DNA from: a virus | IMG/VR virus record: IMGVR_UViG_3300033153_007973 | Location: 1 to 64,000 of that record | Direction: 5' to 3' (one strand) | DNA length: 64,000 bases | In this document: positions 608 through 51,883 of the stretch, one piece after another | Layout of the letters: each line of letters begins with the position of its first letter | How positions within the stretch are numbered: position 1 is the stretch's first letter | Translations under genes and position numbers: made by a program | Notes under the pieces: model-generated | What the model was told of the DNA's origin: nothing | The model's input: only the letters and a program-made list of their open reading frames with translations | Database searches by the model: none

Positions 608-3600
608 TTACTTCGACGTATCCGACATCACCATTGTGTTGCTTCTTGAAGCCATTTGAAGGAAGAGACTTACAATGCTCCCGTCATCACCTTGAGCCGC
701 TGCTCGATGGAGACTTATAACTCCTCCGCTCATTATGGAATGAGCAACTGGTGTTGTCCTTGCGCATATTACGCTGACGCCGGACTGCCACTTACCACCT
801 TTAAACATGCTTTCGACCACCTTCTGCGCGGTCTCTGGCAGGCGCACGAGCTTTGAGAGCTCGTCCTGCAGTTCCTGTCTTGGGACTGCTTCCAGTGACC
901 TTAGCATATTTGTTACTATATCTAGAGTAGCCTTTTGCCCTTCACTATTCTTACTGTTTAGAGCAGGCTGTGCGAGTGAATGGTAGAGATCATTTGCATA
1001 TGTAATCCCTACTCTACCATGATCTTGCACCATGATATTTCGCATGATATTACCAATGTTACCGGCATTTGCAGCACCTTCTTTCATAAATCTGAACTCG
1101 GCTGCTGCAGCTGCCTGACCTTTAACTATGTGCTCAATGCTGACTCTTCCCTTCATATACCTGTTGAAGTCAGCATTTTTCTCTTTGCTATATCTGTCGC
1201 GGATATCTCTCCAGTTTTCGCTGGTACCAGTGGACATTGAAAACCGAAAGTCTACTTTCCGCTTCATGAGATTTTCGCGGGGAGAGATTTTGAGCCCCTT
1301 TAAGGCTTTGGAACAAGAAAGCATGTTGAAATACTTGGCGATCCAGATTTTGCTCAAGTCTGCTTTTGCCTTTGCTCCTAATGGAGCATATGCAATCATT
1401 GTATCGCCATCAAAGTCACCATCGAAAACAGTAACTAATGCTGGATTGAAGCGAATTGTGTTTCCCTTCCATACTAGCATTCTCATGCCTGCTACGTTGT
1501 TTACCTGATGTGCCGGATTTCGGCTGATTAGGCATCTTGCCTTTTGGCGTTTCAGGATAGAATTAATGGATCCTGTTGTTAGGTCCATCCAGTCATCTTC
1601 CGGAATCATATAGGATTTTCGGAAATCGGCAGATGCACACCATTTCTTAAATAGCCGAATTGGAATCTCGCATGTTGTCATGTCTAGTTGTGGATTACCC
1701 GATATTACTGCATGGCAGCTTCTGATAACTCTTGGAAATGCCAGCATTCGGATTATACCTGTCTTCCTGAACAGACGCTTTGCGATACCATTCATTACCA
1801 TGTTGAACATTTGATTTGAGCGAGTTATCATACTTCGCTCTATCCATGGATTGTCATATCCTCCAGCTTTGTGCTTTTCGAAGTTCTGGAAGTATACGAG
1901 CAATGTGTTCAATGCGTTCTGAACATCCGAAACTGTGAAACTTCCATTATTGAGCATATGGGCTTTTAGCGTTTTCGGTACTCTGATGTACATTTCGCCA
2001 TCCGAGCACACATATACATCTTCGGTTTTCACTTTATCTCGGCCCATTCGTGCATTTCGCTCAAATTGGGTTGGGTCATATGATGGTACATTTATCGATC
2101 TTGCGAATGCACCTAAAATTAACTTCATGTCTTTTGGAACTCGAACATAGCCATTTGACTTTAGAAGCCGTGGATCTAGAACTGTTCTCTCACGTAGTTC
2201 TGATTCCACGATATCAGTTTCAGCTGTAAGTGCTGTTCGGTCGATTGCTGTATCGATCACAATCCCATCCATTTGCGATTTCGGCACCAAGAAGCCATTT
2301 CTGGATTTCTTAATAAATCCGCCTTCTAGTGTAAATCCGAAACATTGCATATGATCGATTGTCGCCTCTTCCGCTTGCGTTTTGCGTACTTCGAGGACTA
2401 TCTCTTTTATGAGCTCATCCGCATTAACAGAGTATAAGCTAAACATAACATCAGCAAGAGTATACATACCTTTACCGCGGGGAGCGACTCCTCTATAGTC
2501 CATTAGGACATCCCTGCTGGCCTTAGCCTTTGATTCGGCATGTTGTTCAAGTCGAAAGTATCTAACCCAACCATAGCCCACGTTTTCATACCAGCTACCA
2601 TTTGTCCAGTCTACAACTAGTGCTTCTCGAGGTAGTTTAACTTCTTTGAGTTTCTTCGTAGCATCTTTGAATGAAATGTCATTTGCCAAAAGGGGCATTT
2701 TGCCTTGTGTTGTCTTTCGGGCATATATGCTATACATTTCTTCAAGAATTCGACTCGGACAGCACCTTTTTCCGACATATGGTGGAACGATGATATCTAC
2801 TGGTTGATCATTTATCTTTGGCATATCTTTTCTTGGCAGGATTTTTGCCACAATAACCTTGTTGCCATGATGATCTGCCAGTTTGTCACCGATTGATAAT
2901 CTTAAGGGATAACTCGATTCAACTTGTATATACTTTACGTTTTCATCGGAGTCGTCTCCATTCTCGATTCTTATGTCCGTCACGATAGCTGTTCTCTGTA
3001 GAGATGATCGCATAGGTCCGGCTTTGCATTTCCCGAGGTGTCCTCTGTTTACATATGCATCTAGAGTGTTCACCGCGGAGCGGAACTTCTGGATCATCTC
3101 TGCAGGATTGATTCGCAGAGGTTGTACCGCCAATTCTGCATCTCTGGCTTTGAAGATATCATAGTGTTTGACAATTGTTATGAATTCTTCAGATGCTTCT
3201 TTCGAAATGACACAGCCATCTTCATGAGTATATCCATAATACTCCATTCTTGCTGCCAGAAGATTTCGACCATGGGGTCGGAATTCTGGCTCATCATTCA
3301 TGTCTGCTTCTGGATTTAACATGAGAGGAGGCTCATCGTAGAGTAACTCACATGCTTGTGTTGTATATCTGGCCACGACTTGTCTGTTCGGCGAGATATG
3401 TCGATGAAATGGGTTGTGAGCAAAGATCCAGCTTACTGGGTACTTACCATATGCAATGACATCTCCATCGCTAGTGATTTTGGTTCCCAAACTCAGGTGT
3501 ACTATCTCACCTGCTTTTCCGCTCTGTTGGGTATCACTCATGACAAGATATTCGTTATTGTAAATCTTTTCTGGAGCTCCAAATGGAAGCACAACCTTGC

Positions 3601-4234
3601 CTGCTACATCTCTAGCTTTTAGACGGCTAGGAATATACTCCATTCTGAGCGAGTTTTCGTTGGATACTATTCTTTGAAGCATACCCTGACTGATATTCTC
3701 ACATGCAAACTGATACAGCTTGGAGACTACTTTCTCGTATATCAGGGTATTCTTCCTTACGAGGCGCCATCGGGCAGCATTGTAGCACGATGGTAACGTA
3801 GTTGCGATAACTTTCTTGAATTCACTGAAGTTCAGATACCTGCTCTCTGGTATCCATCCGAAGGTTTGTTTAAACCTGGCTAATTCAGCATCACTGAATA
3901 CCGCACGTTGCAGTATTCTCTCGGTAGCTGTTCCATCGAACGTAGAAGCACGATGATGCTCATGTGGAATATGAAGCATCTTCTTTTCCCAGTTGTACTT
4001 AAGAAATTGTGTAATGGATACTTCTTGGTCATGTGTGATGCATACTGGTGATAACATTACATAATACGGTGGGATCATTCGGTCGTAGTCACGTGCCACG
4101 ACTCTCGCCTTCTTCTCTCCGCGCTTGGTGTTCGCAGTGATGTCGATTTTCATTTCGCCATCTTCGAATAATACACTTAGTTGCGCAGAAGCTCCCGTGG
4201 CGAATTCAACGTGCAGGTCGTTGAAACTCGTCAT
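608..4234 (-). CDS. DNA-directed RNA polymerase beta-prime-like catalytic subunit (phage multisubunit RNAP)
   Basis: 1208-aa ORF containing VFDGDFDGDTMIAY, i.e. the DFDGD metal-binding signature of the beta-prime double-psi beta-barrel. SD GGGAGGAAA precedes the ATG. Confidence 0.75.
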   Translation of the reverse strand: MTSFNDLHVEFATGASAQLSVLFEDGEMKIDITANTKRGEKKARVVARDYDRMIPPYYVMLSPVCITHDQEVSITQFLKYNWEKKMLHIPHEHHRASTFDGTATERILQRAVFSDAELARFKQTFGWIPESRYLNFSEFKKVIATTLPSCYNAARWRLVRKNTLIYEKVVSKLYQFACENISQGMLQRIVSNENSLRMEYIPSRLKARDVAGKVVLPFGAPEKIYNNEYLVMSDTQQSGKAGEIVHLSLGTKITSDGDVIAYGKYPVSWIFAHNPFHRHISPNRQVVARYTTQACELLYDEPPLMLNPEADMNDEPEFRPHGRNLLAARMEYYGYTHEDGCVISKEASEEFITIVKHYDIFKARDAELAVQPLRINPAEMIQKFRSAVNTLDAYVNRGHLGKCKAGPMRSSLQRTAIVTDIRIENGDDSDENVKYIQVESSYPLRLSIGDKLADHHGNKVIVAKILPRKDMPKINDQPVDIIVPPYVGKRCCPSRILEEMYSIYARKTTQGKMPLLANDISFKDATKKLKEVKLPREALVVDWTNGSWYENVGYGWVRYFRLEQHAESKAKASRDVLMDYRGVAPRGKGMYTLADVMFSLYSVNADELIKEIVLEVRKTQAEEATIDHMQCFGFTLEGGFIKKSRNGFLVPKSQMDGIVIDTAIDRTALTAETDIVESELRERTVLDPRLLKSNGYVRVPKDMKLILGAFARSINVPSYDPTQFERNARMGRDKVKTEDVYVCSDGEMYIRVPKTLKAHMLNNGSFTVSDVQNALNTLLVYFQNFEKHKAGGYDNPWIERSMITRSNQMFNMVMNGIAKRLFRKTGIIRMLAFPRVIRSCHAVISGNPQLDMTTCEIPIRLFKKWCASADFRKSYMIPEDDWMDLTTGSINSILKRQKARCLISRNPAHQVNNVAGMRMLVWKGNTIRFNPALVTVFDGDFDGDTMIAYAPLGAKAKADLSKIWIAKYFNMLSCSKALKGLKISPRENLMKRKVDFRFSMSTGTSENWRDIRDRYSKEKNADFNRYMKGRVSIEHIVKGQAAAAAEFRFMKEGAANAGNIGNIMRNIMVQDHGRVGITYANDLYHSLAQPALNSKNSEGQKATLDIVTNMLRSLEAVPRQELQDELSKLVRLPETAQKVVESMFKGGKWQSGVSVICARTTPVAHSIMSGGVISLHRAAAQGDDGSIVSLFLQMASRSNTMVMSDTSK

Positions 4235-9350: not shown

Positions 9351-10493
9351 TTATTCGTAATCACGAATTATGCCGACTGGAAACTGAGGAACTGCCTTGC
9401 CATTTCCATCGGTACTACTAGTAATTGTCTGGTATCGTACCGTTAGTTGTTTACCGAGGTATGTGCCTTCTCCAGCTTTGAGCATTTCTTGACGATAAAG
9501 AAGAGTTCCTTTTGGGCGAACATTGAATTCTGCACCATCTTTAGTCTTACATTTAAACATAATACAGGTATAATGAATTCCATTTATGTCTTGAGTCTCA
9601 GACTCTACGCCTATGATTTTATATTCTTTCTCTTCCATATCTTTTTTCTTGAGTAAATCATTGCTTCTGTGACCATAAAGGTATTCAGATGCAGCATTAC
9701 GGATGATCGTGCCTTCGAAGCCTTCTTTGATGAAGTCTTTATGGAATTTCTCCATATCGGCTTCAGTTTTACATGGTTCAGTAGCCACGGCTCTGAGGGG
9801 ATTCTTCACCGCTCCTTGCCAACTACTTTTGCTACCCCATCTGTGTTCAAACCTACCTGTATCTGGAGTTGCATCATCGAATATCCAGTATTCGAGTGTT
9901 TGGGTATCTTCGCGAGCTTTCTTGGTTGCTGAGGCAATTCTCTGAAGGCTCCATCCATGATAATAGAGCTCACCATCTAGAGTTTGTCCGGGTCTCATGA
10001 TTTCTTTCAGGCGTTCTATGAGCTTCTTATTCTCTTTCATAACGGCATAGTAGTCCTTACCGTTACGACTGGTCATAGTCAAGCTACCATCATCATTCAT
10101 GGTGGTCATGCAGCGAACGCCATCAAGCTTTGGTTGGACATATGCTGGCCATGTTATATGTTTCTTGCGTTCTTTGTACTTATGTGCTAACATTGGGCGT
10201 GTGGAGATATGCTTTTCGGCGTCCTTCATAGATTCTGTATACTCTTTGCGTTCCTTCTTGTGTGTCCAAGATGCTTCTGCTTCAAGATATGCTTGCTCGA
10301 GGGGTGTAGTGGCGTTTGACTTACCAATATTCTTTCCCTCTGTAATGGTTTTGCTACGTTCGATCATCTTACCATCGACTTTGCCATTATTGGTAACAAT
10401 AATTGCATACTTACCGACACTTGCCACGCGGATGGACCATTGCTTGATTCCTCCATCCTTGGACTTTGCATAGAGTATTGGAAACTTAGTCAT
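9351..10493 (-). CDS. ATP-dependent DNA ligase
   Basis: Nucleotidyltransferase motifs I KLDGVR, III LDGELYY, IV EGTIIR, V LLKKKD. Confidence 0.85.
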   Translation of the reverse strand: MTKFPILYAKSKDGGIKQWSIRVASVGKYAIIVTNNGKVDGKMIERSKTITEGKNIGKSNATTPLEQAYLEAEASWTHKKERKEYTESMKDAEKHISTRPMLAHKYKERKKHITWPAYVQPKLDGVRCMTTMNDDGSLTMTSRNGKDYYAVMKENKKLIERLKEIMRPGQTLDGELYYHGWSLQRIASATKKAREDTQTLEYWIFDDATPDTGRFEHRWGSKSSWQGAVKNPLRAVATEPCKTEADMEKFHKDFIKEGFEGTIIRNAASEYLYGHRSNDLLKKKDMEEKEYKIIGVESETQDINGIHYTCIMFKCKTKDGAEFNVRPKGTLLYRQEMLKAGEGTYLGKQLTVRYQTITSSTDGNGKAVPQFPVGIIRDYE

Positions 10494-11707: not shown

Positions 11708-12101
11708 CGTTGACTCTCCTATATCCGTTAGTTACATTTGAGTATGACCATGATACTCTACCATTTGGCCATTGTATAAGGCAATGGTGTGGCATTACAA
11801 GAGTAATGTCTTGACCATCACTGTTCCTATAGTAAGTATTTGTTCCTTCTCCAATCCAGATCTTAACTCTAATCGGGTCTTTTGGCGGAATGATAATATA
11901 CTCAATGCTATTGTGCTGATTTTCCTTGAAGAGCTGTTCTGCACTCTTCCAGTATGGTTTGGGTCCTTCTGCTGATTTTTGTTGTGTGATAGGTCCACAG
12001 GATAGAACTAGAACGAGCACCACTATTATATATTTCATTTTAGTTATAAGGATGGAATGGCAGCTGTTCTTTAAAGTCATTGTATCTAACTCTGCTGACA
12101 A
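11700..12101 (-). CDS. putative secreted protein or lipoprotein
   Basis: Internal start MKYIIVVLVLVLSCG looks like a signal peptide with a lipobox-like LSC. Confidence 0.4.
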   Translation of the reverse strand: MSAELDTMTLKNSCHSILITKMKYIIVVLVLVLSCGPITQQKSAEGPKPYWKSAEQLFKENQHNSIEYIIIPPKDPIRVKIWIGEGTNTYYRNSDGQDITLVMPHHCLIQWPNGRVSWSYSNVTNGYRRVNDD

Positions 12102-12774
12102 TCGTTCCTATTTGTTCTTCTGTTACTCGAGTATTACGAGATAATGGTTGACTATCGTATACATATTTGAGAATGGCATCCATCTCAGCATAAGTCATTC
12201 CGATGTCACCTTCATCTGTCTGATCCTTCCATAGTTCAGCAGTTGCTGGTCTATCGATAATCTCTTCAGGTACTTTGAGAATTTTCGCCATCTCATATAC
12301 GTCTGTTTTGTAGACATTCCAGAGAGGAGCAATATCTTCTGCACCATCACCATGAAGAGTATAGTATCCTAGCATTCTCTCGGTCTTATTGCTTGTACCG
12401 AGTACGATTGATTGATGGGCTTTAGCCTGATCATATAGACAAATCATGCGCACTCTGGCCATGATGTTGCCTTTACGTATTAAACTGAGATCTGTATTAA
12501 GGTCTGCACATGCATTTACTGCATGTGAGATAGGTATGGTCATGTGATTTACATGCATCTGTTCTGCGAGGCGACCTGCAATAGTGGTTGATGATGTACG
12601 AGTATACGGTAAGCTGTATGTTCGTACACAGTCATATCCTATGGCCTTCACTGCCAACATAAGACAGACCGCTGAGTCCAAGCCTCCGGAGAGACCCAGA
12701 ACCACTCCTTGCATGTCTCCTACTTTTTCTACGATAAACTTTGTGAGTTCATCTATCTTATATTCTATATTCAT
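12040..12774 (-). CDS. nadE: NH3-dependent NAD+ synthetase NadE
   Basis: VVLGLSGGLDSAV PP-loop (SGGxDS). Start trimmed to MNIEYK (ATG at 12774, SD GGGAGGA) because the longer track ORF overlaps tRNA-Gln. Confidence 0.8.
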   Translation of the reverse strand: MNIEYKIDELTKFIVEKVGDMQGVVLGLSGGLDSAVCLMLAVKAIGYDCVRTYSLPYTRTSSTTIAGRLAEQMHVNHMTIPISHAVNACADLNTDLSLIRKGNIMARVRMICLYDQAKAHQSIVLGTSNKTERMLGYYTLHGDGAEDIAPLWNVYKTDVYEMAKILKVPEEIIDRPATAELWKDQTDEGDIGMTYAEMDAILKYVYDSQPLSRNTRVTEEQIGTIVSRVRYNDFKEQLPFHPYN

Positions 12775-12794
12775 CTCATATCCTCCCAGATATG

Positions 12795-12866
12795 CAGCCG
12801 GTGTTGGAATCGAACCAAACGTTCTCAGGATCAAAACCTGATGTCCTACCATTGAACGAACCGGCT
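12795..12866 (-). tRNA. tRNA-Gln (TTG)
   Basis: Acceptor AGCCGGT/ACCGGCT perfect; anticodon stem TCAGG/CCTGA with loop TTTTGAT; T-loop TTCGATT. Confidence 0.6.
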
Positions 12867-12868
12867 AT

Positions 12869-14023
12869 TTATGCTCCTGCCTTGAAATTATAGATAGGCT
12901 TAACAAACTTCTTGACCTCGACGGTGTCCTCCATTGCCTTGATAATCATATCTTTATCTTTGTATGCGCCTGGAGCTTCATCGAGAGTGTTCTTTGTTGC
13001 TGATGTTGTAAATACGCCGGCATCCTTCATGCCTGCCTGCATGTCTTCTAGGGAGAGCTGTTCCTTAGCTCTCTTCCTGGAGAGGACTCGGCCGGCACCA
13101 TGTGGTGCTGAGAAGTTCCAGTCCTTATTACCTTTGCCCTTACCAAGAATTAAGCCATCCTTCATATTAAATGGAATGACTACTTCTAGATCCTTAGATG
13201 CATTAATAGCACCCTTGCGGATGATACCAGCATGTGTATCTATATAGTTATGTACTGAATGAATCTGATGTCGTGGTTCGAGACTACACCCCTTTTGCAG
13301 ATGTTCCAGAATCTTCTTAGTTAGTAGTTCTCGATTGATTTGTGCGAAGGTTGTAGCAACTCGCATGTCTTCTAGATACTCTTTAGATCCAAATTCCTCT
13401 GTGAGGAACTCGAGACGGTGATATGCAGCACCAATGAACATCTTCTTCATTGCTTCTTTGGCTTTGTTCTGGTGGTGCATGCAGATATCATTACCAAACT
13501 TTCTGGATCCTGAGTGTATCGTGAGCCATTTCTGATCTTCCTCATCGATGCCTATCTCAATGAAGTGGTTCCCACCACCTAGGCTACCCATTGCATGGAG
13601 GTTTCTGTTAGTGTCTGTCTTCATGCGAGTACCAACTTCTGTGATTCTCTCCATGAGAGGGCCTAAGATGCCTCTGGGATTTGGTGTCTTAGCGTTTACA
13701 CTGAAACCGCTTGCGATGCTATTATGAATAAAGTTGTCAAGCTTCTCGAGGTTGATATCGTCATCATTTAGTTTCGTGGAGAGCACGCCACATCCGATAT
13801 CTACACCCACAATGCAAGGAATGACATATTCATTCGTGGTCATAGTGAATCCAATACAGCTACCCATACCAGCATGACAATCAGGCATAATTACGATATT
13901 GGACTTTGCAAATGCAGGATGGTTAAGGAAGCCATAAATCTGAGTAGTGACAGATTCTTCCAGATGAGATTCATCTGGAAGCATGATCTTAGCTACGTTG
14001 TGCTTTGCTTTGATTACGAACAT
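12869..14023 (-). CDS. rtcB: RtcB-family RNA 3-prime-phosphate/5-prime-OH ligase
   Basis: MPDCHAGMGSCIG metal-binding motif and SAPHGAGR (the GMP-histidine motif HGAGR); size and layout match RtcB. Confidence 0.8.
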   Translation of the reverse strand: MFVIKAKHNVAKIMLPDESHLEESVTTQIYGFLNHPAFAKSNIVIMPDCHAGMGSCIGFTMTTNEYVIPCIVGVDIGCGVLSTKLNDDDINLEKLDNFIHNSIASGFSVNAKTPNPRGILGPLMERITEVGTRMKTDTNRNLHAMGSLGGGNHFIEIGIDEEDQKWLTIHSGSRKFGNDICMHHQNKAKEAMKKMFIGAAYHRLEFLTEEFGSKEYLEDMRVATTFAQINRELLTKKILEHLQKGCSLEPRHQIHSVHNYIDTHAGIIRKGAINASKDLEVVIPFNMKDGLILGKGKGNKDWNFSAPHGAGRVLSRKRAKEQLSLEDMQAGMKDAGVFTTSATKNTLDEAPGAYKDKDMIIKAMEDTVEVKKFVKPIYNFKAGA

Positions 14024-14580
14024 TGTTCTTCCTCCTTCTCCTTCTTGGCTTTGTCTATTTCCAACATACGATGGTACATTACATATACCATAGGATCGAC
14101 AGCTTCATCAATATTATCAGTCCAGTAACAGTGTGCTTTCTTTTCCAGCTCCGAACCATCACCCTCGCCTTTACCAGTGCGTTTAACTTCGGATAGGTCT
14201 ACAGTGAATAGGTGATATACTGTGTCACATGATTTCGTTCCGCGGCAAGTGCCTAAAGACACGAGTTTATCTACGTGAATAGCATATCCTGCTTCTTCCC
14301 ATAACTCTTTGGTAGCCAAAGCAGAGTGGAGAAGCTGGGGTTCCATTCCTCCTGTTAGAGAACTGATCTCTTGTTTCATCGACCAGCAAGGTGTGACTTC
14401 CTTCCGTAGGAGAAATTGGACACCATCTTCTGCATCCTCAGAATATCGGTATGGTAGAATGGCTATAATCTCACCATTACAGCGTTTCTCATGAGAGAAT
14501 ACGTATCCCTTGATGCCCTTTGCAGGGTCAACAGCTCTCTTCAGGGATACCCATTCGTTTTCGTATAGTGTTTCTATCAT
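14014..14580 (-). CDS. Nudix hydrolase
   Basis: LTGGMEPQ...ATKELWEEAGY fits the Nudix box GX5EX7REUXEEXGU with R replaced by K. Confidence 0.65.
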   Translation of the reverse strand: MIETLYENEWVSLKRAVDPAKGIKGYVFSHEKRCNGEIIAILPYRYSEDAEDGVQFLLRKEVTPCWSMKQEISSLTGGMEPQLLHSALATKELWEEAGYAIHVDKLVSLGTCRGTKSCDTVYHLFTVDLSEVKRTGKGEGDGSELEKKAHCYWTDNIDEAVDPMVYVMYHRMLEIDKAKKEKEEEQCS

Positions 14581-18300: not shown

Positions 18301-18831
18301 CTATATGATTTTCTTGTTGAAGAACTTGTATGCTTCTTGGTGTCGCCATTTGCTGATGGCCTTATAATACTCTTGTCGTCCTTTATGAGTGATAATTGTT
18401 ACCGGATACTTCTTGATCTTGTTCTCGCACCACAGTAAGAGCAAGCGACCGGTTCGGCCATTTCCATCCACAAATGGATGTGTTACTTCGAATGCATAGT
18501 GTACATTCATGCAGTCAATTGGCTTCTTTACTTCGTTGGCTGCCTTCACTACTCTCTCCAGCATACCAAGAATCTTGGTAGGAGGCGGACAGCTAAAGCC
18601 TCCTACTCTAACAGCAACAGGTCTGATAAGTCCTGTATAATGAGGAGGTAAGATCCCTTTCATCATGGTCTTATGCCAGTTAAGGATGTCCTGAATTATC
18701 AGGTTTTTCTTGGTTGTCAATGCTTTTGCTGCAGCTTTTAAGTGTTGGTCGAACTCCGGTGTTCCTGGATCCTCAAAGATGTCCTCGATAGCATTTGACT
18801 CACTAACTAGTTCTTCTATTCTGTTTTCCAC
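18301..18831 (-). CDS. Fic/Doc-family protein (AMPylation-type Fic domain)
   Basis: HPFVDGNGRTGRLLL matches the Fic motif HxFx(D/E)GNGRxxR. N-terminal SNAIED resembles the (S/T)xxxE(G/N) inhibitory helix. Confidence 0.8.
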   Translation of the reverse strand: MENRIEELVSESNAIEDIFEDPGTPEFDQHLKAAAKALTTKKNLIIQDILNWHKTMMKGILPPHYTGLIRPVAVRVGGFSCPPPTKILGMLERVVKAANEVKKPIDCMNVHYAFEVTHPFVDGNGRTGRLLLLWCENKIKKYPVTIITHKGRQEYYKAISKWRHQEAYKFFNKKII

Positions 18832-25077: not shown

Positions 25078-25659
25078 TCATTTCTTCTTCTTCTCTTTCC
25101 AGCTTTTTATGTTCCTCTTTGCATGAAGGAAGTCCATTTTTAGTATGCATTCTTGATTCTCCACATCCACGATCTCTATGAGCTCGGGATTATTTATTGT
25201 TATTGTTTCGGCAGGACCTGTTATATTATTGTAGATCCTGATCTCTACTTTAGGGCAGGCATTTGCTTTAGCCATGCCTTCCATCTTACCATTGCCCCAT
25301 TTCTGCCATTCCTTACCAATCTTAAGAGCAGATGCAATCTCTGCTATATGAGAATTGATCCAGTCCCCTGGTCTTCCTTCTCGTATCTCTAGCTCTGTAA
25401 GATGCTTTATGGCTGCAGCTGTGCTGCGTTCTATCTCTGCCATACGTTGCATTCGTGCAAGATGTTCAGCATCGTTAGTCGCAACGCCAATGGACTTGCT
25501 TATGCTAGTCATGGCTTCGCGATCTGTCATCTTGTTATCTTTTGTATTGCGAGCAGCATATATCATGCCTAAGATAGTAAAGATACAGATTCCAGCGATA
25601 AAGAGATTTGATATCAGCCCGTCGCGAGCTTCTTTGCTTTCTTTCTGTCTGTTCGCCAT
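25078..25659 (-). CDS. hypothetical membrane protein
   Basis: TM LISNLFIAGICIFTILGMIY; 193 aa. Confidence 0.4.
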   Translation of the reverse strand: MANRQKESKEARDGLISNLFIAGICIFTILGMIYAARNTKDNKMTDREAMTSISKSIGVATNDAEHLARMQRMAEIERSTAAAIKHLTELEIREGRPGDWINSHIAEIASALKIGKEWQKWGNGKMEGMAKANACPKVEIRIYNNITGPAETITINNPELIEIVDVENQECILKMDFLHAKRNIKSWKEKKKK

Positions 25660-26342
25660 ATTTCTCCTCGTGTTTTGGCTACAGTTTGAGCAAGTTTTAC
25701 GTACTCATTTCGTCCATCCTGAAAGCAGCCACTATTGATTACCTTAACTGATCCCATTTGTTTTACAAATGGTTTTTCGTGTGTATGTCCGTAGACTATG
25801 ATGTCTAATCGGTTGCCCTTTGCAAATTTATAAGCTTTATCTCTGAATGGTGTGTAATCTTTGTCGAGTCCACTGGATAGTTCCTTGCCCTTCTTCCAGC
25901 CAATTGCCATTTCGATTGGTTTCCATATCCATCTGACTGCCCATTTACATGCTTTCTTCTTGAGTCCGCGGTACTCGAGAGTAGGATCATGAATGATACC
26001 GACCTTTAGATCACCCCAAATAATGATTAGAAGATCGATTCCGATTGATAGTCCATCATCAGTATCATCATGGTTTCCATTGATGATCATTTGCTCCATG
26101 GCCCAGCTGGTTTCTTCTGGCCATGCTTTATATATATCTTCTATATCGTATTGCCATGCTTCAAACCAATCGCCACAAATGGTCCAGAACCACTTTTTGC
26201 GTGCTCCTGTCATCATCCATTCTAGACCAGCTTTACTGGCAACAGCATTATCTGCTGAGTCTTTTCCGCCTAAATGAGCATCTGATGCTACATATATAGG
26301 CTTCTTTGGGTCGTACTCTACGATCTTTGTTCGAATCTTCAT
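25614..26342 (-). CDS. calcineurin-like metallophosphoesterase
   Basis: Motifs ICGDWFE, NGNHDD and GHTHEKP are the metallophosphoesterase signature blocks. Confidence 0.7.
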   Translation of the reverse strand: MKIRTKIVEYDPKKPIYVASDAHLGGKDSADNAVASKAGLEWMMTGARKKWFWTICGDWFEAWQYDIEDIYKAWPEETSWAMEQMIINGNHDDTDDGLSIGIDLLIIIWGDLKVGIIHDPTLEYRGLKKKACKWAVRWIWKPIEMAIGWKKGKELSSGLDKDYTPFRDKAYKFAKGNRLDIIVYGHTHEKPFVKQMGSVKVINSGCFQDGRNEYVKLAQTVAKTRGEIWRTDRKKAKKLATG

Positions 26343-26778: not shown

Positions 26779-27110
26779 GTCATGGCCTCGAATCCTGGTA
26801 GTCTTTCCTTTTGGTCTGCGACAAATGGTTCTATTTCTTCGATAAGTTGTACATTATCGATGCTACTGTGATCCCATGATTCACGTAGTTCTTTAACGTC
26901 TTTGTCTCCTTGTTCGTTTAGTGCCTTCTCGCCTGCTTCTTTCTCGTTTTGTGCTACTACTTCGAATTCAATAGTTCTTTCGACGTTTATATCTACTTGA
27001 TATATCTTTCTTGGAATTGGTCTGAATGCTCTGCATCCCTCACAATCAGGACCATTACAATCGGTATGTTCACATGTTTCTGGTGTCTGTATATCAGAAT
27101 GGAATGTCAT
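26775..27110 (-). CDS. hypothetical Cys-rich protein
   Basis: CEHTDCNGPDCEGC. Confidence 0.35.
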   Translation of the reverse strand: MTFHSDIQTPETCEHTDCNGPDCEGCRAFRPIPRKIYQVDINVERTIEFEVVAQNEKEAGEKALNEQGDKDVKELRESWDHSSIDNVQLIEEIEPFVADQKERLPGFEAMT

Positions 27111-27963
27111 TTTCAGCTACCTTTCTCACTTTCTTAAGTACAGGCTTAATCTTCTCCTCTTTCGCCATATCAGGTGCTAGTCCTTTCACATGTGCTGGAT
27201 CTAGTCGGCTGCCAATAACACCATTTCTAGAATCAAGGATATCAAGTAGATATTTACGTTCTTCTTCGTCTTCCTGTTTCTCTTTACTGAGATCAGTAGG
27301 TGCTCCACTGAGATATCCTCCAGTGTGCATCTTAAGATCTTCCCAATCATTAATAGCTAATGCATTGATTCCAACAGCTATTTTAGTAACATCTGCGCCG
27401 CGGATCTTATATCCGCGCTTGATAAACTTCATCATTCTGTAAAGAGTGCTGAATGGATATGGTAACTTATTGATTCGTAGCATACGTGACGCTACATCCT
27501 GTAGATAGTTCTGACTGCAGTTAATTATTCTAGTAAATGGATACCATGCTGCCATACATATCGTGAAGTCGAAGTTTTCTGTGATGAATGCAGGATCTCC
27601 TACTGGATCCTTGATAAACTGATAGAAATAGTTATCTATCTGTATATTAATAGCTCGCTTGCTTTCCTTCCATTTGTATCCTCGAATTACTAGACCTTTT
27701 CTTGACATACTTCTAGATCGATCGAATGATTTAAGATAGATACGTAGTTTCGTAATGAGTTCTTTGTGAGTACAGAAGATGTCGATATCACGAGGTTTCT
27801 CGCCTACGAAGAGTGACGTAATAGCACCTCCGGCCACGAAGAATGCACAATGCTCATTCTTCTTCCTAAGGACTTGAGAGTCCGCTATTTTGAGGAAGTC
27901 ACTAATAGGTTGTATTATCTGTGTGAGTGTATAAGTTTGATCCGGGGCTTCAATTTGGATCAT
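27094..27963 (-). CDS. Pol-beta superfamily nucleotidyltransferase, CCA-adding/poly(A) polymerase head-domain-like
   Basis: FFVAGGAITSLFVGEKPRDIDIF matches the class II tRNA nucleotidyltransferase motif GGAVRDxLLGxxxxDxD. Confidence 0.5.
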   Translation of the reverse strand: MIQIEAPDQTYTLTQIIQPISDFLKIADSQVLRKKNEHCAFFVAGGAITSLFVGEKPRDIDIFCTHKELITKLRIYLKSFDRSRSMSRKGLVIRGYKWKESKRAINIQIDNYFYQFIKDPVGDPAFITENFDFTICMAAWYPFTRIINCSQNYLQDVASRMLRINKLPYPFSTLYRMMKFIKRGYKIRGADVTKIAVGINALAINDWEDLKMHTGGYLSGAPTDLSKEKQEDEEERKYLLDILDSRNGVIGSRLDPAHVKGLAPDMAKEEKIKPVLKKVRKVAENDIPF

Positions 27964-31037: not shown

Positions 31038-32246
31038 TTATTTCTTTGATGCTTTGCTTTTCACGCCAGCATCTCTCATCATTTTCTTGGAGAGATCATA
31101 CATGGCGTTGTAACCCATGGCAGCCAAGGGATTCTCGGCGCCACCACTTTTACCACTGTTGCCGCTCATTACGACACCAGGGAAGCGAGTCTTCGAAAGG
31201 TTCTTCGAGACTGCATCAGCAATCTTGAGATCAAATTCTGCCCTTTCTCTTGGTGTAAGTCCGGCAGCTACCAAAGCTCGGTTAGCTGCGGCCTTGGCTG
31301 CACCCTCGGCTCTGACCTTCTTGGCTGTTTCCAGAGCTCTTTTAGCTGCATACTGCTCGACTTCGAATGCTTTCTGGGCTTCGGTAACTGCAGCGACTCT
31401 GATAACGTCCTTCTCGGCTTTGGCCTTGGCGATTTTGGCTTTACCCATTTCCAGGGCAGTAATTGTATCCTGCTTTGCGCGGATGGCTGCTTGTTTCGCT
31501 AGCTCTGTAGCCATAGCTTCATCCTTGCGTTTGGCGATCATTTTCTCGACTTGCTCGTCAAACTGTGGTACGTCAATTACACATTGGTTGATGACGCAAC
31601 CAATTTTGGCGAGTTGGTTCGGGAGACGCTTAGGATTTCCGGCTTTGTCTCTTACAATAACAGTAACCTTCTGCATCTCTTTGGCGCCGACTGATTTCTC
31701 AATATATCGGGTGTCGGACTTGGTGACGTAAATGCCGTTCTGAAGCTGATCTTCAACTGCCTGTTGGAACAGTGCCAGTGTGGTGTATGCGTCCTGTGCA
31801 CTTCTTAGGTTCGCGGACAGCTTGACAGCATTCTGGACGATGGGAACCACACCGGATACGATAAAGTGATCGAATCCCGCGGCATAGTCGTTCTTCAGTT
31901 GGAGTGCTCCCTCAACCGTTTTCGGTAACTGGATTCTGACCAGGCCAGAGATCTGGGCTTTAGAGCCGTCATTGAAGATAACTGGAATAGCACTGATGTC
32001 GGCGGTTCCTTCACCCTTTGATTTTCCGAACCCGACCGTAGCCACGTTCTTGTAGGTAAAGATCTCGCCGAACATTTGTGCATACCAGCCTGGCCTAAGC
32101 CTGACTGACATGGAGCCTGTTCCGGCTGCTTGCTTGACCTGAAAGTATCCTGCTCTGTTTACCTCAAAGAGGGATCCTGCACACAGAAGGAGGACGAAGC
32201 CAGCGATACAGACGCCAATGACAATCTTCATCTTTTGGGTCATCAT
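31038..32246 (-). CDS. SPFH/band-7 (HflK/prohibitin-like) membrane protein
   Basis: N-terminal TM IVIGVCIAGFVLLLCAG, then an SPFH-like core and an Ala/Lys/Glu-rich coiled-coil tail. Confidence 0.7.
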   Translation of the reverse strand: MMTQKMKIVIGVCIAGFVLLLCAGSLFEVNRAGYFQVKQAAGTGSMSVRLRPGWYAQMFGEIFTYKNVATVGFGKSKGEGTADISAIPVIFNDGSKAQISGLVRIQLPKTVEGALQLKNDYAAGFDHFIVSGVVPIVQNAVKLSANLRSAQDAYTTLALFQQAVEDQLQNGIYVTKSDTRYIEKSVGAKEMQKVTVIVRDKAGNPKRLPNQLAKIGCVINQCVIDVPQFDEQVEKMIAKRKDEAMATELAKQAAIRAKQDTITALEMGKAKIAKAKAEKDVIRVAAVTEAQKAFEVEQYAAKRALETAKKVRAEGAAKAAANRALVAAGLTPRERAEFDLKIADAVSKNLSKTRFPGVVMSGNSGKSGGAENPLAAMGYNAMYDLSKKMMRDAGVKSKASKK

Positions 32247-33355: not shown

Positions 33356-34408
33356 TTATTTTCCATGAACGATATCATTGAACTTTTCGTTTGCGTCATA
33401 TCCCCATTCTCGACCGATTTTACACTCTTCTTCTTCATCAACCTTGAAGATATCAGCTGTGCACGTGGGTCCTTTAGGGATGAAACTTCCGGTACCGATA
33501 CCATCAAACGCATCTTTGACATGCATAAAGGCTTCTGTCTTCACGGCGTCAAATCCTGAGGATACAAAGATCTTAACGCCTTTTCCACCTGCTGCATCGA
33601 GTTCACTGCGTAAACGAGCAACGGCATTCATAGTAACACCTTTCTCTAGGGCATTTGAGGAACTGTCAATCTGAGCATAGTTCTCACCACAAGTGTCGGT
33701 GCGTACTCCATAAAGCTTGTCTCCACAGTGTTTAAGGAGTGATAAAGTATCATCAATCTCCTTATTATTATAATCGATCAGGGCAATAAACTTGTCATCT
33801 GGGAGAGCTTTCATGTATGCATCTGCCATCTTGATATAATCTCCGCGGAAGATAGCAATCAAAGCATGAGGTGTGGTTCCTATTCCTTTACCAGAAGGTA
33901 GGTCAATTTGATTGATAATGTTACGTATATCATCGGCACGGTTACTGAGATAATTCTGTGCTTCTGCTCCTGTATCAGTACTGACTCCTCTGATTCCGCC
34001 AACGTATCCACCATATGATGCTAGTGCAACAGATTCTGCACCATAGAGATGACGTGCAGAGAAATCAAGAACTGGTTTCCCATCTGCTGCGTTCACAATT
34101 GCTTTGGCATGATATGCACAGTAACAAGGTAGAGCGCACCATTGAAGGTAAAGAGTCTCGAGCTCTACGATGTTCTGGAAGAATCCTTTTACAATCATCA
34201 TAGTATCACCAGATTTAAACTCAGTTCCAGTGGGAAGGATATCGATATCTGACATGGGTGCTAGTGTTCTGATCAGTGCCGCTGCAGGTTCGAGTGCAGC
34301 AATACCATTAGAGCGACCAAATATACGATATGATACTCGTGGATTCATCCTGGTTTCCTCAGCAACAATTCGGGATTTGCTGAAGTACTTATCTGTGAAT
34401 GGATTCAT
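33356..34408 (-). CDS. nicotinate/nicotinamide phosphoribosyltransferase-like protein
   Basis: 350 aa whose overall pattern resembles NAPRTase/Nampt phosphoribosyltransferases; it is translationally coupled to the PncA gene. Confidence 0.55.
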   Translation of the reverse strand: MNPFTDKYFSKSRIVAEETRMNPRVSYRIFGRSNGIAALEPAAALIRTLAPMSDIDILPTGTEFKSGDTMMIVKGFFQNIVELETLYLQWCALPCYCAYHAKAIVNAADGKPVLDFSARHLYGAESVALASYGGYVGGIRGVSTDTGAEAQNYLSNRADDIRNIINQIDLPSGKGIGTTPHALIAIFRGDYIKMADAYMKALPDDKFIALIDYNNKEIDDTLSLLKHCGDKLYGVRTDTCGENYAQIDSSSNALEKGVTMNAVARLRSELDAAGGKGVKIFVSSGFDAVKTEAFMHVKDAFDGIGTGSFIPKGPTCTADIFKVDEEEECKIGREWGYDANEKFNDIVHGK

Positions 34409-34962
34409 TTGCTGGACCCATTTTGCACAGTTATACCGTATAGGGTCAACATACGTTGAAGAGCAGCTTCCCCTGCTTCTGGTATCAGATCATCTACGAG
34501 ATCTTTGTGAACAATGATTTTCGGGAGCTTCTTATCTTGGTTCTTCATCTCATTGATGATCGAGGTAACGACATCATGGACACAAATGCTTGTGCATACA
34601 CCAGTTATATGGATTTCGGGATTTTCCTTACCCTCACACCAGTCTATGATGTTATTAACAATGCAAGCAGATGTATATCCCTTCTTGACAAAGCGAATAA
34701 TGGCTTTGTTCTCCGGAATAGCATCTTCAATAGGTTCAACGATCTTCGTACCTTCTGTCTCTTCGATACAGTGTTCTGGGAACAGCTTGAATTCAGGATC
34801 ACCTTTGCTGTGTCTGTCCATGGTGAGCATAATATCACCATCAAATGCTTTGACGAAATTGGCTACACGACCTTGAAGTTCTTTCGTGTCGTGACCAATA
34901 TACAACTTACCATCCTTATTTAGAAAGTCATTCTGCATATCTACTACGATTAGTAATTTCAT
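34405..34962 (-). CDS. pncA: nicotinamidase PncA (isochorismatase-fold)
   Basis: MKLLIVVDMQNDF is the signature start of nicotinamidase/isochorismatase hydrolases; catalytic Cys context TGVCTSICV. Confidence 0.75.
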   Translation of the reverse strand: MKLLIVVDMQNDFLNKDGKLYIGHDTKELQGRVANFVKAFDGDIMLTMDRHSKGDPEFKLFPEHCIEETEGTKIVEPIEDAIPENKAIIRFVKKGYTSACIVNNIIDWCEGKENPEIHITGVCTSICVHDVVTSIINEMKNQDKKLPKIIVHKDLVDDLIPEAGEAALQRMLTLYGITVQNGSSK

Positions 34963-41112: not shown

Positions 41113-41519
41113 GTTATTCCTCCTATTGGATCGAATAGTTCTTCCTGTGTTATTTTTTGGCTCTTCTCTTTCTTGGCTTTTGACTGATGCTGAACAAGAT
41201 ATCCAACAATTTCTGCATTCTCTGTATGAATAAAGCTTCCTGTTGAGATTTTATTAGACATTGTGATGTTGTACCCGAGGCTGGATCCAAGTTTATCGTT
41301 TGTTTGTATATATAATGAATTGCATCTAAATACCTTCCCGACAAAATCATTATACCATGCTGTTGGCTGCTGTTTCTTAATGACCTTGATTAGCATTGTT
41401 TTCTCTAAGTATATATTGTTAGTCTTGAGTTTAGCTATATTCTTGGATCGTAATACTGTATCAGAGACAATTCTTCGTCTCTCTGCTTTTGTTGCTGCGA
41501 ATAGTTCGCTACTCATCAT
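41109..41519 (-). CDS. hypothetical protein with C-terminal EELFDPIGG tail
   Basis: Ends QEELFDPIGGIT; the GGAGG encoding IGG serves as SD for the next gene. Confidence 0.45.
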   Translation of the reverse strand: MMSSELFAATKAERRRIVSDTVLRSKNIAKLKTNNIYLEKTMLIKVIKKQQPTAWYNDFVGKVFRCNSLYIQTNDKLGSSLGYNITMSNKISTGSFIHTENAEIVGYLVQHQSKAKKEKSQKITQEELFDPIGGIT

Positions 41520-42609
41520 GGCGTAAAAGCCAGTTCGGATTGACCACCTTGAACGAAAGTCGGCCTATATGGTCATCTCTGAGACTCTCATTGACTGATC
41601 TGATGACAATACCTTCTCTGATGTGATCGGGATAAATCTTGCTCATTCCTTTGGATATCTCGACCATTTCCTCTACTGAATTAGGTAGAGTAGTACTGTT
41701 CTCGAGTATGGGTACATGTTCAAATCCATATCTTTGGCAGAACTTAAGCATATCTTCAAAATCCAAGTACTTGGATGTTTGAAGGTCTAGAACGTTATAT
41801 ACAAAGACTTTGTGTTCCTTAAGTCTGTACTTGTTCTTCTGGATGCCAGGTCCGCAAAGCTCACCTTGTATGCAGATATCTTGGTTTACGCTACGTAGTT
41901 TCTCTTCGATACTATCTCTAAGTGCTACTACCCAGAATGTGTTTTGCTTCTTGGGTTTAGGTTTTATGAATAAGCTCTTGAACCATGCAGGAAAGCCTTT
42001 CTTCTCAATATCTGGAAGAATCTGCATATTCCTACTAGCAACACCGAATTCATCATCTCGGATCCAATATGATGCCGAGGAACCATCAAGTTTCTCTGTA
42101 ATATAGAATTGTTTATCGCAGTGTCGTCTAATAATTCCAGGTATTGTCTGAATTCTGTCTTCGTCTGTCTTTGGGATAAATCCTGGGCGTGTTTTCGTCC
42201 GGCGTCCGCTGAGCATAGCTGGCATCTGGGGCTCCCACTTGAGAATGCCCAGTACTTTGGTGACATCATCTCCAATCTGTAGTGCCTTGTCGCCTTCGGA
42301 TTGATCGATGATGCTCATAGGAAATGCAATACCCTGTGAGACTTGTTTACGCAGCTTGATGGTCTTAATTCGATATCCGCGGTCTTTGAGGAACTCGAAT
42401 TCAGGTCGTGGCGGTAGGATGCTATCTATTTCACAATAAACGCACTTGCTGCCGATTTTGAAGTCGTCCTTCTTGTTGATGACGACTTTCCACCCGAGGA
42501 TCGTCGCGACTTCGATTTGGTTCGCGTTCGGGATAGCTTTGATCGCTTTGATTTCTTGGATCGAGGCGAGCTTTCTGCTGATTTCGTTGTTACTGTTGTC
42601 TGTGACCAC
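41509..42609 (-). CDS. ATP-dependent RNA ligase (Rnl, KxDG nucleotidyltransferase superfamily; DraRnl/Rnl5-like N-terminal OB region)
   Basis: Motif I ITEKLDGSSASY; later IQGELCGPG (motif III/IV-like); N-terminal IEVATILGWKVV OB-like segment. Confidence 0.6.
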   Translation of the reverse strand: MVTDNSNNEISRKLASIQEIKAIKAIPNANQIEVATILGWKVVINKKDDFKIGSKCVYCEIDSILPPRPEFEFLKDRGYRIKTIKLRKQVSQGIAFPMSIIDQSEGDKALQIGDDVTKVLGILKWEPQMPAMLSGRRTKTRPGFIPKTDEDRIQTIPGIIRRHCDKQFYITEKLDGSSASYWIRDDEFGVASRNMQILPDIEKKGFPAWFKSLFIKPKPKKQNTFWVVALRDSIEEKLRSVNQDICIQGELCGPGIQKNKYRLKEHKVFVYNVLDLQTSKYLDFEDMLKFCQRYGFEHVPILENSTTLPNSVEEMVEISKGMSKIYPDHIREGIVIRSVNESLRDDHIGRLSFKVVNPNWLLRHDE

Positions 42610-48585: not shown

Positions 48586-49071
48586 CTAGAATAGGTTCTC
48601 CTTGATCTCTTTTCTGACATGCAGCCCCTCACGGATTTCCATCAGGATACGGCCCAGCATATTCTCTCCATGCATGGTTGTCAAGTCCTTTCCCCAGAAT
48701 ACGTCATTCCAGGTATTACCCTCGATGAGTTCTTCTGTGCCGGTTTTCAGCAGCATATTTGCTAACTGGGGCTTGGAGAACTTCTTGCGAACCAGCATCC
48801 GCATGATGGTTACTCTTACTTCCTGCCAGTCACTACGTAAGCTGACCTGCCGGCCGGCACGCTTGGCCTGGCCTGGTGAGGCTAGGTTGGATATTCTTAC
48901 TCTCTCTTTGATATCAGGGGTTTTACACGCCTGAAACGCATGCTCTACAGATGGGTAGTTCACACCATCGTGCACGAGTGTTGTTGGGAAGAAATTACTC
49001 AGAAAGAAGTGGCCTCCCTGGAATATCTTTATCATGTTATTTCTCCTTCTTGAGATATGCTTCTTCTGCAT
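48586..49071 (-). CDS. NADAR-domain (YbiA/DUF1768-like) protein
   Basis: FQGGHFFLSNFFP...YPSVEHAFQACK matches the YbiA/NADAR core (FFxxLSNFxP...SvEHyfQa.K). Confidence 0.65.
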   Translation of the reverse strand: MQKKHISRRRNNMIKIFQGGHFFLSNFFPTTLVHDGVNYPSVEHAFQACKTPDIKERVRISNLASPGQAKRAGRQVSLRSDWQEVRVTIMRMLVRKKFSKPQLANMLLKTGTEELIEGNTWNDVFWGKDLTTMHGENMLGRILMEIREGLHVRKEIKENLF

Positions 49072-51580: not shown

Positions 51581-51883
51581 CTAATCGGTTACCGGTCGAG
51601 GTGCGCCGATTCCCTTACTTATATTAAGATATTCTGCTATCACGTGACCGTGGCAAGCTTTTGGTGAACAGTAACATACGATATGTTTCCCTCGTAGTTC
51701 TGATACTGCCTTAAAGAATGTAGTATCATTGCGCATTCTTTCATGAAAGTGTTTCTCGAACTTCTCGATAACTTGTGTTCTGTCTCCATCCTTACCTATT
51801 ACGTAGGGATTACCATAGGGAGAACCACGGCCGATATATACGTCTCCAGGTTTCTTGTCCTTAATGTGACCTACAGTTGTCAT
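51581..51883 (-). CDS. small conserved protein (GSPYGNPY...CYCSPKACHGHV motif)
   Basis: The pattern recalls a DUF4326-like family; the assignment is unverified. Confidence 0.3.
   Translation of the reverse strand: MTTVGHIKDKKPGDVYIGRGSPYGNPYVIGKDGDRTQVIEKFEKHFHERMRNDTTFFKAVSELRGKHIVCYCSPKACHGHVIAEYLNISKGIGAPRPVTD

Follow-up and report, generated by a model that had tools for sequence, protein, structure and literature searches.

We analyzed a 64-kb stretch of viral DNA (positions 1 to 64,000 of IMG/VR record IMGVR_UViG_3300033153_007973; hereafter, the window) that is likely to encode an archaeal-flavored, Preiss-Handler-type NAD+ salvage pathway leading from nicotinamide through nicotinate, nicotinate mononucleotide (NaMN), and nicotinate adenine dinucleotide (NaAD) to NAD. 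The proteins in question are a putative nicotinamidase (PncA) and a short type II phosphoribosyltransferase (PRTase) encoded as an adjacent pair, together with an NAD synthetase (NadE) and a Nudix hydrolase encoded elsewhere in the window. This reading builds on gene identities, catalytic residues, folds, and a clustering conserved in phages and in a bacterium, from which we infer the substrate specificities, the order in which the steps proceed, and where the adenylyltransferase comes from. In the logic of the pathway, an initial deamidation makes sense only if a final enzyme restores the amide, and the window encodes enzymes for both. We describe the pathway as archaeal-flavored because the solved structures nearest to the PRTase and NadE are Pyrococcus proteins, and because related phages have an adenylyltransferase of the NadM type. 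The window represents 27% of a 234,008-bp Joint Genome Institute (JGI) contig holding the exact window proteins, and derives from a jumbo phage whose genome is 234 kb or larger; absences reported below apply to the 64-kb window rather than to the whole genome. Comparisons with cultured phages were made against 50,697 GenBank phage records.

Enzymes encoded in the window

The PncA stop codon and the PRTase start codon share a 4-nt ATGA in the context ...AGCAAATGAATCC..., an arrangement predicted to couple the translation of the two genes. A Shine-Dalgarno sequence (GGGAG) was found upstream of PncA, and a scan for promoters and terminators around the pair was uninformative, with counts not above those of shuffled sequence. 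The pairing is not due to chance, because both genes co-occur across phage loci and overlap by 4 nt on a bacterial contig. The original prediction, made from the letters of the window without database searches, had described two overlapping open reading frames (ORFs); both lie on the minus strand, and their coordinates and start/stop overlap all checked out.

The PncA-like protein begins with MKLLIVVDMQNDF and matched the Pfam family Isochorismatase (PF00857) with an E-value of 2.2e-14 (54.3 bits; cut-off, 27). Its closest PDB entries were 5zn8/6a8l (E 1.5e-13), deposited as "Isochorismatase" and presumably the structure of Bacillus subtilis PncA (Shang et al., 2018), followed by several nicotinamidases/pyrazinamidases. 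The catalytic triad D8/K93/C127 aligned with that of B. subtilis PncA and was kept in phage homologues. The metal site D49/H51/H64 was also present, and D8, D49, H51, and H64 were found in all 19 phage homologues covering those columns. An Asp/His/His (DxH...H) metal site, as seen in the structures of Pyrococcus horikoshii and Mycobacterium tuberculosis PncA, separates nicotinamidases from other isochorismatase-like enzymes, and its presence ruled out a generic isochorismatase identity. Judged from its sequence, this is a short and divergent PncA, nearer to that of B. subtilis, and its relatives in cultured phages were distant only (Phass-1 and phage G gp275). It would hydrolyze nicotinamide, the base freed at every NAD+ cleavage, to nicotinate and NH3.

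Comparison of the PRTase with NCBIfam yielded seven matching models, all of them nicotinate phosphoribosyltransferases (NAPRTases) and none NadC or Nampt; the best were PRK07188 (5e-46) and PRK08662 (5e-41), with full-length alignments. Pfam gave only a weak QRPTase_N match. Sequence searches of the PDB with phmmer detected only 2i14 (Pyrococcus furiosus; 4.6e-14) and 1ytd (Thermoplasma acidophilum), and identity to the archaeal enzymes was 22-26%. An AlphaFold (AF2) model built from 24 clade members (predicted local distance difference test score [pLDDT], 90.5) showed a type II fold, with an N-terminal sandwich and an alpha/beta barrel, that was closest to NAPRTases: the top four Foldseek matches (2i14, 1ytd, 4mzy, and 2f7f) were NAPRTases with E-values of 5e-17 to 6e-13, and quinolinate phosphoribosyltransferases (QAPRTases) and bacterial NAMPT ranked lower, with weaker E-values. 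On the NCBIfam matches and the Foldseek order, QAPRTase, Nampt, and Namat identities were rejected. The earlier description of this protein as a phosphoribosyltransferase resembling NAPRTase/Nampt held up, with NAPRTases as its nearest relatives by sequence and fold.

Residues invariant among the 24 clade members were D6, Y8, R119, H120, H181, R236, D238, S284-G285-F286, and G307-S308, which include the motifs TDKY (Y8), AR119H, GTTPH181A, and VR236TD238TCGE. H181 and R236 aligned to the same motifs in 2i14 (VRTDTCGE versus VRLDT), and the residue following H181 was Ala (A182), as in 2i14, and not acidic. In human and Enterococcus faecalis NAPRTases, the corresponding roles are those of a stacking Tyr (Y21 in the human enzyme), an Arg (R171), the phospho-His (H213), and the carboxylate-binding Arg of RxD(S/T)G (R318) (PMC4442680). 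By motif-level mapping, Y8, R119, H181, and R236 are the predicted counterparts of these active-site residues. The alignment to 2i14 (395 aa) stopped at chain residue ~323-332, and no extra Cys-rich tail was found. A C-terminal zinc-knuckle domain is a trait of the archaeal (Ta/Pf) NAPRTase subtype; the phage PRTase, ~40 residues shorter, appears to be without it. A preference for nicotinate over nicotinamide or quinolinate would follow from context, namely the coupling to PncA in phages and a bacterium and the co-occurrence of NadE, and the strongest available argument that the enzyme takes nicotinate is that the PncA-PRTase pairing is kept in both cells and phages. The PRTase would then convert nicotinate and phosphoribosyl pyrophosphate (PRPP) to NaMN and pyrophosphate. 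No member of its clade was detected in the cultured-phage records by tblastn (E <= 1e-5), and a DNA search likewise returned no homologue.

NadE matched PF02540 (E 1.6e-63) and exceeded the cut-off of TIGR00552 (212.9 versus 63.65 bits), narrowly missing the equivalog PRK13980 (251.4 versus 255 bits). It contains the SGGLDS PP-loop and no glutaminase domain, and its closest PDB entry was 2e18 from P. horikoshii (4.7e-44). The longest ORF (12040-12852) overruns tRNA-Gln (12794-12866), which sits between RtcB and NadE; for this reason, and because a GGGAGG sequence lies upstream of position 12774 and the gene called on a duplicate contig likewise encodes 244 aa, the start at 12774 is correct. 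The sequence-based assignment to NadE is unambiguous, and the enzyme would convert NaAD, ATP, and NH3 to NAD+.

The Nudix protein had no Pfam match of its own and was recognized through its fold and its 137 homologues, many of which carry PF00293. A homologue (phmmer, 1.1e-10) carrying PF00293 adjoins NadE in the related locus L021, and its best NCBIfam match was NudE, "ADP compounds hydrolase". Its AF2 model (pLDDT, 96.1) retrieved ADP-ribose pyrophosphatases (ADPRases; including that of Klebsiella pneumoniae), NUDT5, YffH, and NUDT14 as the top Foldseek matches, and superposition on M. tuberculosis ADPRase (1mqw; template modeling scores, 0.74/0.70; root mean square deviation, 2.8) showed an ADPRase-type two-domain fold. 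A partial Nudix box was found at G77..KELWEEAGY99; compared with GX5EX7REUXEEXGU, the box GGMEPQLLHSALATKELWEEAGY keeps E16, E19, E20, and G22, with L in place of E7 and K in place of R15. A conserved proline ~16 residues past the Nudix box is the ADPRase signature, and residues 100-117 (AIHVDKLVSLGTCRGTKS) contain no proline. The protein would probably cleave ADP-ribose to AMP and ribose-5-phosphate, so that the remainder of a cleaved NAD+ molecule would re-enter the pools of PRPP and adenylates; of all the assignments in the scheme, this one is the least certain. NadE and Nudix flank RtcB on the same strand, ~20 kb from the PncA-PRTase pair, and the end of the Nudix gene shares 10 nt with the start of RtcB. 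The earlier calls of an isochorismatase-fold nicotinamidase, of NadE with its start and SGGLDS motif, and of a Nudix hydrolase beside RtcB were thus all sound, the last with an ADPRase-like fold.

Relatives, gene order, and the adenylyltransferase step

The PRTase clade comprises ~38 proteins with 41-61% identity, mostly encoded on contigs of 140-205 kb. PncA-like and PRTase-like genes occurred together in all eight close-clade loci, and among 19 IMG/VR loci with more distant PRTase relatives, genes for PncA-like proteins, NadE, and NadM-like proteins were present within 10 kb in 11, 5, and 2, respectively. The most compact arrangement was found in L021, a contiguous run of Isochorismatase, CTP_transf_like, PRTase, a 130-aa ORF, NAD_synthase, and NUDIX; in L001, L022, and L030, the same genes are spread across ~14 kb. 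The CTP_transf_like proteins of these relatives carry RCQPFHxGH and SATxVR motifs, and their best matches were the archaeal NMN adenylyltransferase (arch_NMN_Atrans; NMN, nicotinamide mononucleotide) and NadM/Nudix models; related phage contigs place a NadM-like adenylyltransferase between PncA and PRTase. In L002/L023, as in the window, PncA and PRTase were found with no NadM within 10 kb, and L023 also had no NadE within 10 kb of the pair. Outside phages, a 578-kb bacterial contig encodes a 30%-identical PRTase whose gene shares 4 nt with that of an isochorismatase, the two being arranged in the reverse of the phage order.

An SPFH/Band_7-like protein is encoded downstream of the PncA-PRTase pair in the window and shows 34% identity to a 424-aa protein that follows NadE in L001 (L001:13479-14753). 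Because of this match, the ancestral cluster seems to have been PncA...NadM...PRTase...NadE-x-SPFH, with NadE having moved and NadM having been lost from this spot in the window lineage. The G+C content of the NAD genes (0.405-0.437) fits that of the window (0.437), which argues that they are long-resident phage genes. Between PRTase and NadE, the relatives also have a conserved ORF of ~130 aa (L021:11077-11469 and L001:11094-11492, beginning with MKIGLDIHGVVD... in L001), which had no family match and no counterpart in the window and may be an additional member of the cluster.

The original prediction had stated that only the adenylyltransferase step was not found, and profile and motif searches for NMNAT/NadD agreed with it within the window. 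A six-frame scan for the NMN/NaMN adenylyltransferase motifs (H/T)xGH and GxFxPxHxGH found none; Pfam scans of 86 ORFs (E 1e-3) and 51 ORFs (E 0.05) detected no CTP_transf_like/NMNAT; and neither tblastn of the window with the NadM-like protein of a relative nor a search of all window ORFs of at least 50 aa with a hidden Markov model built from three NadM-like proteins retrieved anything. Conversion of NaMN to NaAD would fall to host NadD or to a phage gene outside the window, the relatives having their NadM-like gene at exactly this place.

One further locus bears on the PRTase. A 31-kb JGI contig (L024; sample 3300033143) matches every base of the window across an aligned 1.8 kb, save for one 155-bp deletion (window 33673-33827; L024:5040-5060) that lies inside the PRTase gene and has AGAT microhomology at its flanks. 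The deletion causes a frameshift that splits the PRTase into fragments of 195 aa and 91 aa, with loss of residues ~193-245, including LIDYNN and VRTDTCGE. Either it occurs in nature as a loss-of-function variant, or it is an artifact of assembly.

Weighing the pathway and its role

Several observations weigh against the proposed pathway or parts of it. The PncA-like protein misses the NCBIfam equivalog PRK11609 (18 bits versus a cut-off of 174), and the PRTase falls under the equivalog cut-offs of its two best models (157.3 versus 378 for PRK07188 and 140.7 versus 243 for PRK08662). The aligned Nudix box is without the canonical E7 and R15, and the protein without the ADPRase proline. The adenylyltransferase step is absent from the 64-kb window; a metagenome scan with two narrow NadM peptide patterns returned seven loci, none on the 234,008-bp contig, a result that is not evidence of absence. 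The location of NadE and Nudix in a tRNA/RtcB block, 20 kb from the pair, weakens the case for a single integrated system, and the Nudix protein could serve RNA repair, because its orthologues in L001 and L022 adjoin a Ro60 (TROVE) protein and a metallophosphoesterase. The frameshifting deletion on a co-occurring contig suggests that the PRTase is dispensable and thus accessory rather than essential. Finally, a counter-defense role is plausible solely by analogy with the NAD+ reconstitution pathways NARP1-3.

Depleting NAD+ is a major means by which bacteria defend themselves against viruses, and experiments have established three phage pathways that counter it (NARP1-3). The module would serve to sustain the NAD+ supply over the course of a long jumbo-phage infection, very plausibly also in hosts with NAD+-destroying TIR/SIR2-type defenses; the chances that counter-defense is its main selective reason are roughly balanced. 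In support of the proposed pathway, the window also encodes a NADAR protein and a DUF4326 protein (Table 1), families tied to NAD/ADP-ribose conflicts in jumbo phages (PMC7824862), and these genes suggest a wider NAD/ADP-ribose theme in the genome. A more far-reaching proposal, which we regard as tentative and somewhat short of an even chance, is that PncA, the NadM-like protein, the short NAPRTase, NadE, and the ADPRase-like Nudix protein form a fourth phage NAD+ reconstitution pathway that recycles both nicotinamide and ADP-ribose and defeats Thoeris, DSR, SIR2-HerA, and SEFIR-type defenses. Four of the five genes in this set of the relatives are present in the window. The ADP-ribose half would be recycled via AMP and ribose-5-phosphate to PRPP, and phages that lost NadM, like that of the window, would depend on host NadD.

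The same enzymes could instead provide a general auxiliary metabolic boost of NAD+, serving a long infection and phage NAD+/ADP-ribose enzymes rather than counter-defense, an explanation that is just as simple and whose probability we place a little below even. Such clusters have been read in this way, with reported complementarity to host pathways (PMC11662467); PRPP-consuming salvage of the NARP2 type increases NAD+ also when no defense system is present, and the PRTase deletion variant marks an accessory gene. However, a metabolic boost is compatible with counter-defense: comparison with the literature showed that NARP2 and NARP3 consist of ordinary, classical salvage enzymes, yet defeat NADase systems. 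Moreover, the DNA ligase of the window is ATP-dependent, so that one classic phage consumer of NAD+ is missing.

A different order of steps, as in Francisella, would have NadE act as an NMN synthetase (NaMN to NMN), followed by NadM-type conversion of NMN to NAD+. The adenylyltransferase of the relatives is indeed of the NadM type rather than the NadD type, the window protein falls in a group of short NadE proteins with Francisella tularensis NadE (3fiu; E 5.5e-36), and NadM and NadE run in this manner in Francisella (PMC3376133). However, the best NadE match was archaeal (2e18), and archaeal NadE and NadM lead from NaMN via NaAD to NAD, Methanocaldococcus jannaschii NadE having robust NAD synthetase and no NMN synthetase activity (PMC3376133). 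Because the archaeal combination runs via NaAD, we consider the Francisella-type order an unlikely, minor alternative to the Preiss-Handler order.

It is quite unlikely that the four genes do not form one system, with PncA-PRTase feeding host enzymes and NadE and Nudix belonging to an RtcB/tRNA RNA-repair block. The 20-kb separation, the overlap of Nudix with RtcB, the Ro60/TROVE and metallophosphoesterase neighbors of the Nudix orthologues, and the pair without nearby NadE in L023 all point in this direction. By contrast, the genes are contiguous in L021, where Nudix directly follows NadE; NadE has no known role in RNA repair; and NadE activity is still required to turn the NaMN from the pair into NAD+.

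Highly unlikely, last, is a PRTase that does not use nicotinate and is instead Nampt-like (nicotinamide and PRPP), Namat-like (nicotinamide and ADP-ribose pyrophosphate [ADPR-PP]), or specific for quinolinate or another base: the type II PRTases share one fold, with QAPRTases and NAMPT also among the Foldseek matches, and the scores under the equivalog cut-offs and the lone weak QRPTase_N match would fit this, but all seven NCBIfam models and the four best folds are NAPRTases, His181 is conserved in the clade and to our knowledge absent from QAPRTases, no PRPS-like Adps partner was found among the Pfam matches of window ORFs, the coupled nicotinamidase would destroy the substrate of a Nampt or Namat, and NadE would have no purpose beside such an enzyme.

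Neighboring genes and known NAD+ pathways

Features of the window are listed in Table 1. One of the 11 tRNA genes, tRNA-Arg(TCT), follows the PRTase stop at a distance of 15 nt. A single protein at one end of the window combines Rpb2_6 (residues 286-569; RNA polymerase beta-type) and Rpb1_2 (residues 900-964; beta-prime-type) and looks like a fused multisubunit-RNA-polymerase-like polypeptide; no close relative was found in the 50,697 phage records, which gave marginal matches only (23-26% identity over ~250 aa). Four genes make up an RNA/DNA end-repair set. On the duplicate contig (L024:10757-11626), a 289-aa ORF had a precomputed Pfam match to the anti-Gabija family Gad2 (PF26128), and it had no match in the local copy of Pfam, and a Fic/DOC family protein is encoded amid tRNA and HNH endonuclease genes.

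Table 1. Positions of the NAD+ salvage genes and other features in the 64-kb window
Feature	Position	Strand	Remarks
PncA-like nicotinamidase	34405-34962	minus	185 aa; PF00857
Short type II PRTase, NAPRTase-like	33356-34408	minus	350 aa; NCBIfam, fold
ATGA stop/start overlap, PncA/PRTase	34405-34408	minus	read from sequence
NadE, NH3-dependent NAD synthetase	12040-12774	minus	244 aa, single domain
Divergent Nudix hydrolase, ADP-ribose/NDP-sugar pyrophosphatase-like fold	14014-14580	minus	188 aa; fold, homologues
RNA/DNA end-repair set: RtcB; RNA ligase with PHA02142 OB domain; metallophosphoesterase; ATP-dependent DNA ligase	12869-14023; 41509-42609; 25614-26342; 9351-10493	minus (all)	
tRNA genes (n = 11)	5261-33341	minus	Met, Gln, Arg x3, Cys, Trp, Pro, Thr x2, Asn
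RNA-polymerase-like protein	608-4234	minus	1208 aa; Rpb2_6, Rpb1_2
Fic/DOC family protein	18301-18831	minus	PF02661, E 1.1e-15
ORF with Gad2 match on duplicate contig	27094-27963	minus	289 aa; PF26128
SPFH/Band_7-like protein	31038-32246	minus	402 aa
NADAR protein	48586-49071	minus	PF08719, E 4.6e-26
DUF4326 protein	51581-51883	minus	PF14216, E 3.5e-26

Similar gene sets are already known in giant phages, and the general idea is in the literature: a computational study described the Preiss-Handler cluster pncB-nadD-nadE in "NAD-jumbo phages" and also mentioned phage pncA (Microbiome 2024; PMC11662467). Like those phages, the 234-kb contig carries NAPRTase and NadE of the same pathway, and the evidence is purely genomic in both cases. 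Set against the definition of NAD-jumbo phages (>200 kb, with pncB, nadD, and nadE), the contig has 234,008 bp and pncB-like and nadE genes, with no nadD/nadM in the 64-kb window. It differs from those phages in that the window has no adenylyltransferase and the relatives use the archaeal NadM type, in the coupling of PncA to the PRTase, in the ADPRase-like Nudix protein alongside, and in a PRTase clade that is absent from the phage records. The suggestion that a Preiss-Handler set would be a variant of the NARP pathways is less novel than supposed, jumbo-phage clusters having been reported already. The locus is of value as a confirmation, and as a good starting point for experiments on a candidate fourth NAD+ reconstitution route, rather than as a surprise.

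NARP2 of Vibrio phage KVP40 consists of Nampt and Nmnat/Nudix and overcomes NADase defenses experimentally (Osterman et al., bioRxiv 10.1101/2024.02.11.579819). The window pathway resembles it as a classical PRPP-dependent nicotinamide salvage with an associated Nudix protein. Unlike the amidated two-step route of NARP2 (nicotinamide to NMN to NAD), however, the pathway proposed here would be deamidated, take four steps and approximately three ATP, and use NAPRTase rather than Nampt; NARP2 itself was rejected on finding no Nampt model match to the PRTase and no Nmnat in the window. With NARP1 (Adps and Namat), it shares the rebuilding of NAD+ from the products of NAD+ cleavage, and Namat is a type II PRTase relative, whereas the window PRTase groups with NAPRTases and not with Nampt/Namat. 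NARP1 was likewise rejected, since the PRTase is NAPRTase-like and no PRPP-synthetase-like family (Adps) was found among the Pfam matches of the 86 window ORFs. NARP3, which comprises PnuC and NadR and starts from imported nicotinamide riboside (Sci Adv 2026; PMC13464706), is similar as a phage-encoded rebuilding of NAD+ by classical salvage enzymes; neither PnuC nor NadR was among the Pfam matches of window ORFs, and this candidate was also rejected. None of NARP1-3 uses the deamidated nicotinate route, and the locus and its relatives, notably the contiguous cluster of archaeal-type enzymes in L021, constitute a compact, testable candidate for it.

The enzyme set of PncA, short NAPRTase, NadM (in the relatives), and NH3-dependent NadE is that of archaeal and bacterial Preiss-Handler salvage, with 2i14 and 2e18 as the nearest solved structures, and a PRTase-PncA operon also occurs on the bacterial contig. 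Unlike the archaeal NAPRTases of P. furiosus (2i14) and T. acidophilum (1ytd), the phage PRTase is shorter, at 22-26% identity; its clade of small (350-aa) NAPRTases has no cultured-phage representative and could serve NaMN or NMN production. What is particular to this locus is that PncA is coupled to a short NAPRTase, that the NadM-type enzyme of the relatives is absent in the window, that an ADPRase-like Nudix protein accompanies the set, and that the PRTase clade was found in none of the 50,697 records.

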